This document shows positions 21,001 to 27,000 of a DNA stretch of 64,000 nt, in pieces. This DNA is from an uncultured Nitrospiraceae bacterium (lineage in GTDB: Bacteria; Nitrospirota; Nitrospiria; Nitrospirales; Nitrospiraceae), in contig CAVPLT010000004.1 in NCBI GenBank assembly GCA_963706325.1, positions 384,001 through 448,000 of the forward strand. Direction: 5' to 3'. Each line of letters opens with the position of its first letter. Positions within the stretch are counted from its first letter, which is position 1. Position numbers: made by a program.

Positions 21001-24000
21001 GAAGGGCAGCGCCATGAGTCGGATACTATCGGAATGACCAGGAAGGGATCGTCATGAGTGTGAAATGTGGAATCGTCGGCTTGCCCAACGTGGGGAAGTC
21101 TACCCTCTTCAATGCCCTCACCAAGTCGGGGATTGCGGCGGAGAATTATCCGTTCTGTACCATCGAGCCGAACATCGGCATTGTGGAAGTGCCTGATGCG
21201 CGGATACAGGCGTTGGCCGATATCGTGTCACCCCAGCGGATGCAGTATGCCACGACGGAGTTCGTCGACATCGCGGGGCTGGTCGCCGGCGCATCGAAAG
21301 GCGAAGGTTTGGGAAACCAATTCTTGGCCAACATTCGTGAGACCGACGGTATTGTGAATGTGGTGCGCTGTTTCGAGGATGATAACGTCGTGCACGTGGC
21401 AGGCAAGGTGGATCCTTTGTCGGACATCGAGACCATTGTCACAGAATTGGCCCTGGCAGACCTCACGACCGTGGAAAAGGCACAGGAGCGTAATCAAAAG
21501 GTCATCCGCTCCGGAGATAAGGACGCCGCGAAACTCGGCGAGTTGTTGGTGCAGGTGGCGGCCTGTTTGAATGAGGGCAAACCGGCGCGCACCTTGAAGT
21601 TCGATCCGGCGCAACGGGCATTGCTCAAACCGCTCTGTCTGCTCACGATGAAGCCGGTGATGTATGTGGCCAACGTAGGCGAGAAGGGCTTCACCAATAA
21701 TCCGCTCCTCACCCGAGTAGAGGAGTATGCGGCGCGGGAAGGCGCGCCGGTCGTGGCGATTTGCGCGGCGCTGGAAGCGGAAATCGCGGTGCTTTCCGAC
21801 GAGGAGAAACGAGAGTTTCTGGTGGATATCGGCATGACCGAACCGGGACTCAATCGGCTGATTCGCGCGGCGTATCAACTGCTAGGCCTACAGACGTATT
21901 TTACGGCGGGCGTGAAGGAAGTCCGCGCCTGGACGATTCATATCGGCGATACGGCCCCGCAGGCGGCGGGGGTCATTCACGGTGACTTCGAAAAAGGCTT
22001 TATCCGCGCGGAAGTCATCGGGTACGACGACTATATCGCCTGTAAGGGAGAAGCGGGCGCCAAAGAAAAGGGAAAGATGCGGCTGGAAGGCAAGGAATAT
22101 GTGGTGCAGAACGGCGATGTGATGCACTTCCGCTTCAACGTCTAGCAGGATGCTGACAAAGTTCGCCAGTAGCGTTTTCGTCTCGTTCAGAACCTCAACG
22201 TACCGAAGGTACGCTTCGGCCCTTCACTCCCTGCGGCCTTACTGGACGGACTTTCTGAGCATCCTGCGTGGGTGTCCCCATGTTGTCACACACATGCGGA
22301 ATATGGAATTCCCAACTGTCACAAATGTTTGTGTTGCATGCGACTGGGACGCCAAAACCCAGTCGTCAGGATGAATGGCCTCTGCCTTTTCGCATGCTCT
22401 CGTGGCAGTGGCCATGGGGAAACTTTCGCGCCATCCTGTCATGGACCGCCGTGCCCTGTTGGTGGGCGCCCTCTGCGCAGTTCTGCCGGATATCGACGTG
22501 GTCGGATTCGGTTACGGCGTTCAATACGGAGATCTGTGGGGACATCGCGGACTGACCCATTCCCTGGTCTTTGCCGCGCTGTTGAGCGGGGCGCTTGTCG
22601 CTGTGTGGTATCGGCAAAGGGCCGCGAAGGTCAAGGCGATGCTGTGTCTGTATTTCTTTCTCGCCACGGCTTCACATGGCCTGTTGGATGCTCTGACGAA
22701 TGGAGGGTTGGGCGTGGCCTTCCTCTCTCCGTTTGATACAACAAGGTATTTCTTCGGCTTTCGACCGGTCGCCGTTTCTCCGATCGGTGTCAGCGAATTC
22801 TTCACCGCCTATGGTGCGCAGGTCTTAGCCAGCGAGGCGCTCTGGATCTGGCTGCCGTTAGCTGCGTTATTCCTGTCCGTTCGTCTGCTCCAACGTATGA
22901 GGCTCGGTCATCCAGTCGAATAGCTCTCCGTCTTAGTAAGGGACAGTGTCGATGCCCCCGCCTCAAGTCAGAGGTCGGCTCGGTGCGGAGCCTCGATGGA
23001 GCAAGCTCTCGAGTTGACTCAATGAGGCTGAGGATACCGCATTCGTTCTTCGGGGCAGATTCTGAGGCTCAACTGTCCCATGAACCGCTTGAGGTCTCCT
23101 CCGAACTGCACCGCATATTGTGTACATTCGAGATGATCTTTTATGGTGACGGTATCTATTTCTGCGTCGTTTCAAGCCGTAGGCGTTCCGCTGACCATGT
23201 AACACCTGCGAGCGGTTCATTGCGCCGGTCCACTGCTTGAATGGCAACCGTCACACTTTGCGCGTTTGCAAGTTGAGTCGTGAGGAGCTTCAGTGCTTGT
23301 GTGACGTCGATGAGTAGGGTGGGCAGGCGTCGTGGTCCCGACATGGTCGGTCGTACCGCCACGATACCTGCCGAGCCCAGGACCAGAATCTGTTGCTCCT
23401 CCGTAATGGTCGTCACGCGAAGCTTGAGTGGTCGATCTCCCGGCACGGTCACCCCTTCGAGCACCAGCCGAATTCCGGTCGCGTGCTGCCATTGTGCCGG
23501 CAGCGCGACGGTGAAGTGATGTTTCTCCTCGTCCGCATGGCTCGGCATGGAAAGACTCGTTATGAAACTCAACACCAGGAAAACCACTCGCCTCGTCATT
23601 TGTCCTCTCGTTCGACCTCCGCAATCGTGAGGTGGACGTCCTTTGCCCGTACAGGGATCACCGTTGGATTCTGATTCTTGTCCTTTCGTTCCACGAAGGC
23701 AAGCCGCACAGGACCCTGAGCACCGCTGAGCGCATCGAGCATCGGACGAGACAGATTGACGGCCATGTTGCGGGCCTGCTTGGATGTATGCCTTCCCGCA
23801 CGATCATTGAGAACGACTGGGAATGTGCCGAGGTATCCCTTGCCGCTTGGGCCTTCGTCGGCCTTGGCGGTTTCCGGCGTGGCGTATAACCGATAGACCA
23901 CACTTTTATCCAGCGGTAACGAGAGGTCGGTCAGGTGCAACCTGGCCCGTCCCCCCTGTTCGAGGATTCTGGAAATTTTTTCACGCGTCTGGCGAACCAC

Positions 24001-27000
24001 CTTGAGCGTTTTACTGACACGCCAATCGGTGCGAATGACCAACCAGTCGAGGAGGCAAGGCAGCAGTTCAAAAAACCGGGATGGTCCGTAGGTGTACCGT
24101 AACTGATGTTCGTGGTTGAGCACCTGCGCCGCCGTTATCGAGCGCCAAACTTTGTTCTCGTCGTAAAAGGTCCATGTGAGATTGAGGAAGGCGGGGTCGG
24201 TTGAATTCGTGTGGGTGGACGAGGCTTTGTTCCAGTCCGACCAGATCTTGTCCACGTTGGAATGGTGCGCGTAAAAGATGGGATCTTTGCCTGCCGAATC
24301 GAAGAATCCCATGTCGCCGCCCACGTCGACGTGTACCGACCCGTGCGGCGCTCCTTCAGGGATGCCGCTGCCTCCTGCCGTCCCGCCGAATTCAGCGAAG
24401 GTTCCGGCCGTGAGCGCGGCGTCCATCACTGAATCTCCGACATCCTCGTCTGGAATTTCGTCCGTCGGGCTCATGAGCCGCGTTCCGTTCCAAAGCGGGT
24501 TGCTGTTGTCGTTCGGCGACGTGTAACCGGCCGGCATGGTGCGGTGAGCAGGGCTATCCCAATCCCAGTAGGGGAGCCGGAAGTTCATGTCGCCGATGAG
24601 TTTGCCGAGAATGCGCTCGTGAAAATATAGATAGGCCCGGTGCCAGGCGAAAAACTGCCAGGAGAAATGCACCTGGGTACCTTCACCGCAATACCAACAA
24701 TGGATGTTCGCCTGGCGTTTGAATCCTCGCGGATCGCCGGGATCACTCGTATCCAGTGCCCGCATGGCCTGATAAGCTTCTTTTAGTTTCTTGAGTTCAT
24801 CCGCACTGAGGGTTGAGGCGGGGCGCCGGGGAAGGATCATGCGGCAATCCTTGCGCCAGCGTTTGGCGGTCCCAGGGTTGCCTGGCGGTTCGCACACAGC
24901 CAGGGCGGATTGAGGCCACGTCAGCCCGCCGAACAGGCCGAAGCTGAGCGCCCCGGCACCCAACCCGAGTTGCTGAAGAAACCTCCTGCGCGAAGGCAGG
25001 GGTGTGATTGCGCTCTCTTCACGTCCAGACATGATCTACCTCCTCTATTGTTGGTCCGACCGCTCGTCTCCACTTCAGCATCTGTGACAGCCGATCGTTG
25101 GACTAACCGCGGTTACATCAATAAATATGCCAGGAAGAAAGTGCGAGCAGTCTTTCGTTTCTTTGAAATGGTTACGCCGATAGGCATCAAGATGTGGGGT
25201 AGAGGGAGCGTATCCGATGGGATACGGATGAAGGAAATGGATACATGGTGGTGTTCGCTATGTGCCTCCTCGTCGCAGCTCCATACGTTGACAGTGTCCT
25301 TCCTCAACGTCTAGCGTAACATCGTCATTAAGCCAGGAGAGGGCATGCCCGAATATCTTCCGCCCGGTGTCTTCATTCAAGAGAGCAATCCAGGCGATCA
25401 GCCCATCGGCGGCGTCGCCACGAGTACGGTCGGCTTCTTCGGCATTGCGGAGCGAGGCCCAACGGCGCCGGCTCTCCTCACCAGCTTCAACGAGTATCGC
25501 GGGATGTTCGGCGGTTACGTGCTCGAGGGGAACCAGGATCGCTATTTAGCCTATGCGATCGAGGGCTATTTTCTGAATGGCGGTCGGCGCTGTTACGTCC
25601 GGCGAGTGGTTGCGAATGGAGCCACCGCAGCCGCCACAACCCTCGATGCAAAACTCAAGGTCGCCGCCGTCGGATCTGGGTTATGGGGAAACAGGGTGGC
25701 GGTCGTAATCGCCCCGTCGGCACTCATCCAATGTTTTAGGCTCACGGTGCGTTATTGGGAGCCAGATACACCCTGGTCAGAGGAACCGACAGTGGAGGAA
25801 ATCTACGATAACCTGTCGGCAGACGAAGCCTCGACAGATTTCTACGAAAAGCGAGTCAACGGCGTATCTCGACTCGTGACGATTGAAAGGGCCGGCGTCG
25901 CCGTGCGTCCGGCAGATGTCACCGCAGTCTGGTTAACGGGTGGAAGCGATGGGCAGGCCTACGCCGAAGACGATTTCGAAGCTGCTCTGGATTCTTTTGC
26001 GAAGCTGGAAGACATCGCCATCTTGTGTTGTCCTGAGGAGAGTAGAGTTCCTCGCATCACCGGGGACATGCTGGATCAATGTGAATTTCTGAAGGATCGT
26101 TTCGCCATTCTTCAGGCCCCATTGTTGGTCAGCGATCTCATGGCGCATCGGCCTCCGCGCGATTCACGCTATGGCGCCTACTACCTGCCATGGCTGCGCA
26201 TTCGACATGCCGGTACTGGAACGGAGAAACTGATTCCGCCCGGAGGTCACATTGCGGGCCTTTATGCTCGGACAGACAGGGAGCGAGGAGTGCACAAAGC
26301 CCCCGCCAATGAAACGCCTCGCGGTTTGCTGATAGATCCGCTCGACCCTGCGCGGGGCTTGGCTGGTTTGGTCACTACGGCGCAACAGGAGGGCCTCAAC
26401 TCGCGGGGCGTCAACGTGCTTCGATATTTTCCTGGAAGGGGAATTCTCCTGTGGGGGGCGAGGACGATGGCTTCCGACCCCCAGTGGAAGTATGTGAATG
26501 TTCGCCGTCTGGTCATCTTCATCGAAGCGTCTCTCAAGAAGGGTACGCGCTGGGTGATCTTTGAACCCAACGATGAAGCCTTGTGGAATCGTGCGCGCCA
26601 CAGTGTCAGCAACTTTCTCACGAGGTTGTGGAAAGACGGCATGCTACAGGGGCAGAAGCCGGAACAGGCATTTGTAGTCAAATGTGATCAAACGACGATG
26701 ACGCAAGCAGATCTCGAGAACGGCAGGCTTATCATGGTGATCGGCATCGCTCCGGTAAGGCCGGCTGAATTCGTCATGTTCAGAATCGGGCAGTGGGCGG
26801 GCGGTTCCGAAGTGACTGAGTAGTGGTTGACTCAGGCCTCCCCGCAGCGGGGCAGCACCGAGTGTCATGACGCTCCAGACTGTTGCTCTCAAGCGGTAGG
26901 TTGCCTCAAGTCTTGCAATAGCCATGATAGACCACTAGACTTCTTTATCAGGGGCAGCAGTAAGTCCCAGAGTCATTTTTCCCGCTCAGCCAGAATAGAA

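Follow-up and report, generated by a model that had tools for sequence, protein, structure and literature searches.

A contractile-tail sheath gene kept without tube or baseplate genes, divergent from a plant-type polyphenol oxidase, in Nitrospiraceae

Introduction

Contractile-tail sheaths have so far been understood only as parts of machines. According to their descriptions of the screens, surveys of eCISs select on tube and baseplate genes (PMC6899500, PMC12210884), so that lone sheath genes are left out by design. What, then, does a sheath gene do in a genome that encodes no tube? The question is raised by a 64,000-nucleotide stretch of an uncultured Nitrospiraceae bacterium (GCA_963706325.1, contig CAVPLT010000004.1, 384,001–448,000; hereafter the window, and the genome G000), in which a genome survey had found a solitary sheath gene divergent from a polyphenol oxidase gene. 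Here we describe the gene, its missing partners, the selection acting on it, and its relation to the oxidase.

Identification of the sheath gene

The survey's finding of an intact 492-aa sheath ORF at the ychF–trmL locus was confirmed; the gene lies between ychF/ydjM and DUF3597/trmL (Table 1). Its product matched Pfam PF04984 (E 6e-11) and PF17482 (E 6e-17), above the curated cut-offs, and PHROG 23 (phrog_23, E 8.7e-61; 9e-61 had been reported), and these matches and the sheath fold placed it in the contractile tail sheath family. The closest solved relative was the CIS sheath of Halogeometricum borinquense (PDB ID: 9EZM; E 2.6e-126), which belongs to the same family and has the same three-domain fold as the AlphaFold model of the G000 sheath (pLDDT 89.2; Foldseek TM 0.85). 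Cis2 of the Streptomyces coelicolor cytoplasmic CIS (8BKY/8BL4), as presented in PMC10066040, also shares the fold and family (E 7e-89, TM 0.60). Both of these sheaths are encoded together with a tube, a baseplate, and a spike in gene clusters, whereas G000 has none of them and selection on its sheath is relaxed. The G000 sheath is of the single-chain eCIS type, not TssB/TssC, and contains the N-terminal arm and C-terminal strand motifs; polymerization by strand exchange is predicted. The gene is poorly codon-adapted, its CAI of 0.68 being one of the lowest among 13 genes from its surroundings. The DUF3597 gene was rejected as a partner by gene order: it was not beside the sheath gene in G188, G172, or G031, and it occurred without a sheath in G156 and G180.

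Table 1. Features of the sheath locus, in positions of the window
Feature	Position	Strand	Basis or remark
ychF GTPase gene, left anchor	21054..22145	+	PF06071
ydjM-family membrane gene, left flank	22375..22923	+	PF04307; joined in one run with the sheath gene in G031
Gene for 147-aa protein coupled to oxidase	23156..23599	-	no Pfam match
Tat-signal plant-type polyphenol (catechol) oxidase gene, 478 aa	23596..25032	-	PF00264, PF12142, TIGR01409; neighbour, not partner
Putative sigma-54-like -24/-12 element (GGCA-N6-TTGA) facing oxidase	25118..25131	-	inferred
GTATC-N6-GATAC palindrome	25210..25225		genome-wide motif; probably sigma-54 activator site of oxidase cassette
Putative sigma-70-like promoter element of sheath gene (TTGACA, 18 nt, TAGCGT)	25288..25317	+	inferred
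Ribosome-binding site (AGGAG) of sheath gene	25335..25339	+	sequence
Lone contractile sheath gene, 492 aa, eCIS lineage-II / haloarchaeal-CIS type	25345..26823	+	intact ORF
DUF3597 gene	27011..27409	+	no obligate partner
trmL (SpoU methylase) gene, right anchor	27518..27982	+	PF00588

Absence of tube and baseplate genes

The tube family PF06841 (Afp1/5, T4-gp19 type) was found in none of the eight genomes of the lone-sheath clade, as against 28 of 31 other genomes of the genus. A search of G000 for the T4-gp19 tube was negative; the controls of that search were silent, but within the genus the same family was detected in 28 of 39 genomes. Against G000, a 42-sequence tube profile gave a best E of 10, and 13 profiles of other parts gave none below E 0.14. 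Neither gp25, baseplate J, spike, Hcp, nor a P2-, Mu-, or XkdM-type tube was found in this genome, and there was no match to the cap (Pvc16/Afp16) or the LysM tube initiator (Afp7). Each of the P2-, Mu-, and XkdM-type families was absent from all five genomes searched, with positive controls, and baseplate J and spike were not found in G000, G172, or G176, the control G055 being positive. Seven of the eight clade genomes are without gp25; in the remaining one, G188, it lies on a different contig, 2 kb away from Hcp. Judged by the core parts given in PMC6899500, G000 lacks the tube, baseplate, spike, cap, and initiator of an eCIS or cytoplasmic CIS. Nor did the gene belong to a type VI secretion system (Hcp in one of five clade genomes tested, G188, and none in G000) or to a prophage or tailocin (no PHROG match in six neighbours). 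The only ATPase-like genes of eCIS type (Afp15) in G000 were two short, unlinked ones. Because the short ATPase-like gene is present in 38 of 38 relatives in the genus, it does not track the sheath; it was rejected as a partner, being also missing from 7 of 10 lone-sheath genomes outside Nitrospiraceae (E 1e-25).

A sheath would also appear solitary if its tube and baseplate genes were unassembled or too diverged to be recognized, and the survey had been concerned about a tube gene hidden in a gap. G000 is 96% complete in eight contigs, it does hold the two ATPase-like genes, and dispersed layouts exist: G009 has a lone sheath with a tube pair on another contig, and tubes lie elsewhere in G308–G310. 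We nevertheless consider hidden partners very improbable. Within contig C2 of G000, the sequences that border the usual eCIS in the genus lie 5 kb from each other, that is, the usual site is empty, and all eight clade genomes are free of tubes, including G172, which is 99% complete in two contigs; the solitude of the sheath is therefore not an assembly gap. The profile searches and the ubiquity of the ATPase-like gene argue in the same direction. The reported lack of tube and baseplate genes was upheld by the family searches, our own profiles, and the clade genomes.

Distribution of the orthologues and selection on the sheath

Orthologues were held by eight genomes, all without a tube gene. 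Besides G000, five carried the intact orthologues of 65–85% identity that the survey had counted (G221, G176, G188, G031, and G172). Seven of the holders formed one clade in the rpoB tree (support 100/99); the eighth lacked rpoB. All six intact copies were 492 codons long, with zero indels. The other two copies were broken, and loss appears easy when it occurs: G227, which the internally deleted orthologue of the survey (L332) resembles, has lost the -35 box and residues 43–284, and G192 has lost the start and the C-terminal two-thirds. The G227 branch had a dN/dS of 0.46 against 0.21 elsewhere (LRT 5.6), also different from 1 (LRT 5.1); because many genes of this assembly are frameshifted, the indels and part of the raised ratio may be sequencing errors.

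The lone sheaths, the sheath of the complete eCIS in G044 (61–63% identical to them), and the sheath-tube cassettes of genus g19 formed one branch (support 98), and the ribosome-binding context of the G188 and G031 sheath genes was like that of G044. The G044 eCIS has a cap, two tubes, and LysM initiator, spike, gp25, and baseplate J-like genes, whereas G000 has none of these; G018 and G231 have sheath and tube without gp25. The Nitrospira clade may accordingly be read as displaying a path from complete machine to sheath plus tube, sheath alone, and pseudogene.

Across the six intact sheaths, a one-ratio model gave a dN/dS of 0.215, and neutrality was rejected by 228 log-likelihood units. Pairwise values were 0.14–0.31 in 15 pairs, in agreement with the 0.16–0.28 reported for three, and all nine branches lay between 0.09 and 0.39. 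Over a synonymous tree length of 2.1, about 98 nonsense changes were expected under neutrality and zero were seen. The control previously missing was the sheath of complete eCISs in the genus (534 aa in the usual eCIS), whose dN/dS was 0.045, a value rejected for the lone sheaths by 189 log-likelihood units. Purifying selection, as claimed, was therefore evident from the ratio below 1 and the lack of stops and indels, but it was about five times looser than on the sheaths of complete systems. Relaxation was greatest in the N-terminal arm and domain I, yet the range among regions was narrow (0.16–0.24), i.e. constraint was flat along the protein. Per sequence, 27–47 of 220 near-invariant positions had changed, compared with a median of 3 in relatives. 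Helix 385–403, which presumably faces the tube, has a net charge of -2 in 77 of 99 relatives and of +2 to +5 in all eight clade-like proteins; a positively charged lumen was not seen as a common trait of lone sheaths outside Nitrospiraceae.

These values bear on the alternative that the gene is a slowly decaying remnant of no benefit, its ratio below 1 reflecting earlier selection or the cost of a misfolded, still transcribed protein. The fivefold relaxation, the altered near-invariant positions, the two broken copies in eight, and the reduction series from G044 through G018/G231 are all consistent with decay, as is the tendency of the tips (0.19–0.36) to lie above the two deepest internal branches (0.09 and 0.17). 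However, the branch differences were not significant (free versus one ratio, 2dlnL 13.2, 8 df), ydjM, an ordinary neighbour, has the same ratio as the sheath (0.21; the oxidase has 0.069), and six lineages are without a stop or indel. A cost of misfolding would be expected to favour early stops or promoter loss, not to prevent them, and decay demands a late, separate loss of the tube in eight lineages. We regard it as unlikely.

Relation to the polyphenol oxidase

The identification of the divergent gene as a Tat-exported plant-type polyphenol oxidase proved correct. The protein had a tyrosinase domain (PF00264, E 1.7e-33), PPO1_DWL (PF12142, E 2.9e-8), and a Tat signal (TIGR01409), and matched plant PPO structures at E 1e-42 to 1e-37. 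Histidines 111, 122, 131, 230, 234, and 257 are present, which we take to be the copper ligands, as in type-3 copper proteins; oxidase activity is predicted. Look-alikes of the coupled 147-aa protein in Atlas clusters carried PF25271 (DUF7868) on 24–35% and PF12143 (PPO1_KFDV) on 12–15% of members, which is a lead only. Plant-type catechol oxidases of Nitrospiraceae are already published and are grouped with streptophyte enzymes; in the account of PMC10541563 they have the same tyrosinase and PPO1_DWL architecture, with no notable difference from the oxidase here.

The survey had the two genes share a promoter region and the palindrome, and sheath and oxidase might on this view be a co-regulated functional unit. 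In favour of such a unit, the divergent pair occurs in four of the six intact cases (G000, G221, G176, and G172), and in G188 a copy of the palindrome remains by the sheath after a 5 kb separation. Both genomes with broken sheaths are without the oxidase, the G031 sheath adjoins another oxidative enzyme, a vanadium haloperoxidase, and at the eCIS loci of G044 and G041 the palindrome likewise stands upstream of the leading gene, which encodes a sigma-54 activator. Against such a unit, 11 of the 16 oxidase genomes have no lone sheath, and the palindrome and a sigma-54-like element were found at eight of eight sheath-less oxidase loci examined; G031 has an intact sheath, no oxidase match in its genome, and no upstream palindrome. 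Other lone sheaths have no common oxidase neighbour, and the oxidase is Tat-exported whereas the sheath has no signal sequence. Since the G227 deletion also removed the -35 box of the sheath, its decay is explained without a tie to the oxidase.

The palindrome, with a conserved half-site at 25238–25245, occurs 23 times in G000 (2.4 expected), with a peak only at N6, and for 7 of the 23 a sigma-54-like element lies no more than 250 bp away, versus 1.2% of random places; the palindrome probably belongs to the oxidase cassette and serves as a sigma-54 activator site. The sheath appears to have a separate, sigma-70-like promoter, whose -35 is kept as TTGACA in G172 and G188 and is GTGACA in G221 and G176, the spacer having diverged. 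TTGACA-N-TAnnnT in G000 peaked at spacers 17 and 18 (77 and 50, versus 4–19 at other spacers); a generic promoter scan gave nothing above chance and did not list this element, which has a weak -10. The reported site thus exists but is not shared, accompanying the oxidase and not the sheath, and neither a meaningful shared promoter region nor a regulatory or functional tie was borne out. A co-regulated unit is largely refuted, with little probability left to it; the oxidase cassette is an independent insertion next to the sheath and a bystander.

Discussion

The injection machine has been lost and the sheath is intact and under selection, which suggests that it now has another job. Exaptation of some kind is the probable explanation: the partners are absent, the holders form one clade, and frame and fold have been kept under purifying selection. 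The gene would be the last surviving part of an eCIS, the clade ancestor having lost not only the tube, baseplate, and spike but a second eCIS as well, the one usual in the genus. Selection would have kept the sheath fold and released the fine contacts needed by an injection machine, hence our reading of the sheath as exapted. The gene is presumably transcribed modestly, from the promoter that it appears to possess. In the cytoplasm its subunits may link up by exchanging their N- and C-terminal strands (a 'handshake'), giving tube-free polysheath tubes of the contracted type, or short rings. Such a polymer may bring a slight benefit under some conditions; a scaffold related to stress is a guess. 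Among the readings weighed this specific mechanism ranks first, although we would put it below an even chance.

By published descriptions, the sheath proteins of T4 (gp18) and phiKZ assemble into polysheaths when tube and baseplate are absent (PMC6088184), and FV3 gp053 polymerizes even without its 25 N-terminal residues (PMC6357053), which fits the loosened arm of the lone sheath; these polymers are phage or recombinant by-products. The diffocin sheath stays monomeric in the same account, so not every sheath self-assembles (PMC6088184). Rhapidosomes are described as cytoplasmic tubes in many bacteria, with no gene basis given (PMC8910223). The parts of the polysheath and rhapidosome literature consulted yielded no description of a product of a selected, stand-alone chromosomal sheath gene. 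Against a polymer, the flat constraint fits, as expected, selection on folding alone and not on a lattice interface, the low CAI would argue against an abundant filament, two of eight copies are pseudogenes, and in G172 a proline interrupts the sequence of the N-terminal strand region.

The exapted sheath might alternatively be an anti-phage or anti-CIS decoy, a constitutive subunit that would enter the growing sheath or tube of an invader by strand exchange and cap or jam it. A single patchy gene with a variable locus, repeated gain and loss, and an intermediate ratio is a pattern typical of defence genes, and the lone sheath shows it. Domain-I-only ORFs of about 128 aa in genus g19 could presumably not build a polysheath alone, and in G018 about 2.6 kb separate the sheath-tube cassette from a Gabija system. 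Tail-assembly interference (Tai, Tab) is a known defence in the accounts of PMC11364771 and PMC10884400, but the former does not present Tai as a homologue of the sheath, and the word 'sheath' is absent from the text consulted. Moreover, the nearest sheath of an isolated phage was only 31.6% identical, PADLOC 2023 had no match for the G000 sheath or three other lone sheaths, any protection being hypothetical, and neighbours here and at other lone-sheath loci were mostly housekeeping or metabolic genes. A decoy seems rather improbable.

Exaptation of tail parts has precedents in domesticated prophage tails and other mobile-element parts, which, as PMC8987985 describes them, are likewise phage-derived, immobilized, vertically inherited, and under purifying selection; those tails retain the whole machine, whereas the lone sheath is one part. 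Lone sheaths recur in other phyla, with at least five label changes on the tree. A single origin is not favoured, as five of six changes were forced by starred branches in this quick version of the tree, from which 17 rows were dropped (1 duplicate and 16 second or strongly diverged paralogues, including the lone G019 sheath). In our samples such genes were by no means exceptional: they made up 6 of the 69 metagenomic sheath loci that could be scored, and among 121 relatives of one alphaproteobacterium, 12 genomes carried a sheath, which in 4 of them stood alone. Unrelated lineages had a similar dN/dS (0.22 for L158–L161 and 0.15 for L263–L281). Our literature searches, partly swamped by unrelated papers, found no publication on lone sheath genes. 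Stand-alone sheaths could perhaps be a widespread, repeatedly evolved single-gene class, forming cytoplasmic polysheath tubes or acting as phage-tail decoys, a generalization that we offer tentatively.

The locus yields a genome-wide Nitrospira regulatory motif linked to sigma-54-like promoters, and it offers matched controls: sheaths from complete systems of its own genus, an intermediate with sheath and tube, and two pseudogenes that arose in nature. If the polysheath reading is true, it would give a genetic basis for some rhapidosome-like structures. A sheath kept by selection in the absence of a tube would mean that one part of the contractile tail had been put to a new use, as a filament or an anti-phage decoy.

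The sheath gene and its locus

The 492-amino acid protein was a contractile sheath: PF04984 and PF17482 both scored above their cut-offs, and PHROG 23 matched with an E value of 8.7e-61. Its AlphaFold model, from a 115-sequence alignment, had a mean pLDDT of 89.2, with values below 50 only at residues 1–14 and 486–492, and a TM score of 0.85 against the H. borinquense sheath (9EZM), which together with Streptomyces Cis2 was nearest among solved structures. The survey's finding of an intact tail-sheath gene was thus confirmed. Sheaths of 65–85% identity in named records came from Nitrospira or Nitrospiraceae.

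Features of the sheath locus (window positions)
Feature	Position	Strand	Basis
ychF	21054–22145		ORF and domain scan
ydjM	22375–22923		ORF and domain scan
147-aa gene and 478-aa oxidase gene (147-aa gene, 23156–23599)	23156–25032	minus	ORF and domain scan
Sigma-54-like element, facing the oxidase	25118–25131		
Palindrome GTATC-N6-GATAC	25210–25225		
Contractile sheath gene, 492 aa	25345–26823	plus	PF04984, PF17482, PHROG 23
DUF3597, then trmL	right of sheath gene		ORF and domain scan

Two types of ychF occurred in the family, 88–98% and about 52% identical to the window copy; G188 carried both, and G116 and G140 the distant type alone. In another relative (G156), the slot between ydjM and DUF3597 was filled by a different gene block (L070:2670–6852), which we take to be curli-like secretion and peptidase C39 genes, and which marks the site as a hot spot for insertions.

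Absence of injection-system partners

The genome of the window (G000; 96% complete, 8 contigs) had a single sheath match. A genome search revealed no T4-gp19 tube, and there was no match to gp25, baseplate J, spike, Hcp, or P2-, Mu- or XkdM-type tubes. The best E value of a 42-tube profile was 10, and profiles of 13 other injection-system parts gave none below 0.14. When the ORFs of six related CIS loci were searched in this genome, the sheath was the sole structural gene found. These searches supported the survey in describing the sheath as solitary.

The ATPase profile alone matched two short unlinked genes that are present genus-wide (38 of 38 relatives). These genes (L295:1296–1871, corresponding to C7:97795–98373, and C7:111797–112375) had basic tails and a Walker A motif that looks degenerate, and were unlinked to any eCIS.

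The survey had allowed for a tube gene in an assembly gap. A tube gene was present in 28 of 39 genomes of the genus; the 11 tube-less genomes were the eight holders of a lone sheath orthologue and G160, G196 and G215 (89, 84 and 66% complete). In G055 about 35 kb is taken up by the eCIS usual in this genus, whose flanks were found in the window's genome at C2:145662 and C2:150932, within one 244-kb contig and with ordinary genes between them. Because the eCIS site is empty within this contig and all eight holders lack a tube, a gap in the assembly does not account for the absence, and a hidden injection-system partner is very improbable. The 492-aa protein belongs to the sheath family, yet by the features tested it is not part of an eCIS, T6SS, tailocin or prophage.

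History within the clade

Intact orthologues occurred in G221 and G176 (85% identity), G188 (77%), G031 (69%) and G172 (65%), and broken ones in G227 and G192. An rpoB match was present in 38 genomes, G176 not among them; the tree, built from the 30 genomes whose loci were returned, placed the seven scorable holders in one clade with support of 100/99. Most other members of the genus had ychF-ferritin-trmL without a sheath. The nearest sheaths outside the clade belonged to a complete eCIS in G044 and to sheath-plus-tube cassettes near trmL in G018, G231 and G203; in the sheath tree these and the lone sheaths constituted a single branch. The simplest reading is a stepwise reduction of an injection system, in an order of events that we infer.

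The cassettes of G018 (L042:8902–11677) and G231 (L041) consisted of a peptidoglycan-binding/GH19-like gene, a sheath and a tube, and no baseplate was found; gp25 was absent from both genomes, and baseplate J and spike from G018. A Gabija system lay about 2.6 kb from the G018 cassette. In G188 (L037:2600–7900), duplicated palindromes flanked a 5 kb insert with subtilase, molybdopterin oxidoreductase and other genes, and the region retained a 3' piece of the 147-aa gene.

Selection on the lone sheath

The six intact copies, each of 492 codons, aligned without gaps. Under our own GY94 codon model, the 15 pairwise dN/dS values were 0.14–0.31 at dS of 0.12–1.64, bearing out the proposed purifying selection in several species; the one-ratio estimate was 0.215 (about 0.18–0.25), and neutrality was rejected by 228 log-likelihood units. 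Slow decay of the gene is unlikely, since about 98 nonsense changes were expected and none was seen.

Control sheaths from complete eCISs of the genus (18 of 22 fetched sequences, four 660-aa forms having been dropped) gave medians of 0.03–0.06 and a maximum of 0.10, with a one-ratio value of 0.045 for eight sequences. The comparison of 0.215 with 0.045 indicated genuine selection on the lone sheath, about fivefold weaker than on the controls. Its ratio resembled those of ydjM (0.21) and of the cassettes of genus g19 (0.31). Purifying selection on genes of defective prophages is a precedent. By region, the limits of which are approximate, the lone sheath was flat (0.16–0.24), and the usual eCIS sheath was tightest in the arm (0.002) and the C-terminal domain (0.010).

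We compared 220 positions at which at least 90% of 99 database relatives, taken whatever their genomic context, agree: eight clade-like proteins (three assigned by length and identity only) differed at 27–47 of them and the median relative at 3. The net charge of helix 385–403 changed from -2 to between +2 and +5 in the clade-like proteins. Tube contact is charge-based and lies on the attachment helix of domain I of the sheath, according to the accessible parts of published work (PMC8894135, PMC12546770, PMC6088184), and we infer that helix 385–403 is this tube-facing helix.

The two broken copies served as controls for selection on the intact sheaths. In G227, the oxidase cassette was gone up to the -35 box of the sheath gene, as were sheath residues 43–284; the branch ratio was 0.46 against 0.21 (LRT 5.6) and also differed from 1, in a frameshift-rich assembly. 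In G192, the start codon, frame and C-terminal part were lost, and the pairwise ratio of about 0.3 was not clearly raised.

The oxidase, the palindrome and the promoters

The oxidase had a Tat signal and tyrosinase and PPO1_DWL domains, and its nearest single-domain structures were plant enzymes; plant-type catechol oxidases of Nitrospiraceae have already been published (PMC10541563, in its accessible part). The 147-aa gene behind it resembled DUF7868/PPO1_KFDV-type domains, and its product may be a separate accessory subunit.

The palindrome occurred in 23 exact copies in the window's genome against 2.4 expected, often in tandem and with an excess at a spacer of 6 only. A sigma-54-like element lay within 250 bp of 7 of the 23, compared with 1.2% of random places. 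The palindrome is a probable genome-wide regulatory motif.

The survey had tied the sheath to the oxidase through a shared promoter region and this palindrome. In favour of such a tie, G188 retains a palindrome copy beside the sheath, and two eCIS loci carry the motif upstream of their activator genes. However, 11 of the 16 oxidase-bearing genomes (of 53 searched; all within the genus) had no lone sheath, and in the eight of these 11 that were examined the palindrome and the sigma-54-like element accompanied the oxidase at the same spacing (8/8). In G031, the intact sheath gene stood directly behind ydjM, and the palindrome preceded a vanadium haloperoxidase gene. The sheath gene had a separate conserved putative promoter element, TTGACA-N17/18-TAGCnT, of a pattern enriched genome-wide. 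The proposed link did not hold, and we consider it highly unlikely that sheath and oxidase form one unit. The haloperoxidase gene and its palindrome (L038:231–2108) had the sheath gene on one side and a degenerate second copy of its 3' end on the other.

Lone sheaths elsewhere

In a scan of species genomes, 10 of 26 sheath loci outside the clade and G044 had no tube match at the locus; a gp19 tube was absent from seven of these genomes and located elsewhere in three (three controls were positive; completeness was not given), and gp25 was found in one of five tested. The 10 loci, from Pseudomonadota, Acidobacteriota and Verrucomicrobiota, had no neighbour in common. Among 121 relatives of G306, 12 had a sheath, four of them without a tube; the best 80 of 582 metagenomic sheath loci comprised 63 with a tube, six lone sheaths and 11 with too little flank. 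In a tree of 65 sheaths made by a quick method, the lone/non-lone label changed six times, five of them forced. Four short lone sheaths (363–394 aa; L165, L254, L263, L281) shared a single gene order, with a ratio of 0.15 for the sole unsaturated pair and tubes elsewhere in the L165 genome. Loci L158–L161 had a ratio of 0.22 and nothing in common but the sheath gene. Lone sheaths are thus widespread. Since these searches began throughout from a sheath query and lone tube pairs also exist, we claim no special favour for the sheath.

Such tandem gp19-type tube pairs without an adjoining sheath occurred at L301:4145–5082, in G009:C9 and in other genomes of the genus g10, several of which gave no match in the sheath search. 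Many g19 genomes had stand-alone ORFs of ~128 aa matching the sheath C-terminal domain only (L298:2762–3151, L300:3953–4339), preceded by a gene that is presumably PilZ-like. In another genus of the family, an unrelated 649-aa lone sheath (G009, L093:4256–6205) was encoded 4 kb upstream of ychF. The unpublished genome G006 was counted in family-wide tallies only.

Possible role of the lone sheath

In the literature searched, which lay mostly outside subscription journals and included the accessible parts of PMC9230969, PMC10066040, PMC13266070, PMC9454253, PMC11364771, PMC8987985 and PMC8910223 as well as a listing of PMC10884400, we found no report of stand-alone sheath genes under selection. 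As far as their accessible text goes, published eCIS surveys demand tube and baseplate genes (PMC6899500, PMC12210884); Nitrospira loci may be among the tables of PMC6899500.

A phage-tail decoy is a doubtful explanation, because phage sheaths are distant (31.6%) and there was no defence context at the lone-sheath loci. The reading we favour, tentatively and ahead of slow decay and then the decoy, is that the protein could form a tube-free polymer: the gene would be transcribed from its own promoter, and the product would polymerise by analogy with the sheaths of T4, phiKZ and FV3, which do so without a tube (PMC6088184; PMC6357053, in their accessible parts). The diffocin sheath, unlike these, does not polymerise, and an abundant, precise sheath lattice would sit badly with the low codon adaptation and the flat constraint. 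What is established is that in one clade of Nitrospira the partners of the sheath are absent and its fold has been kept under relaxed purifying selection.
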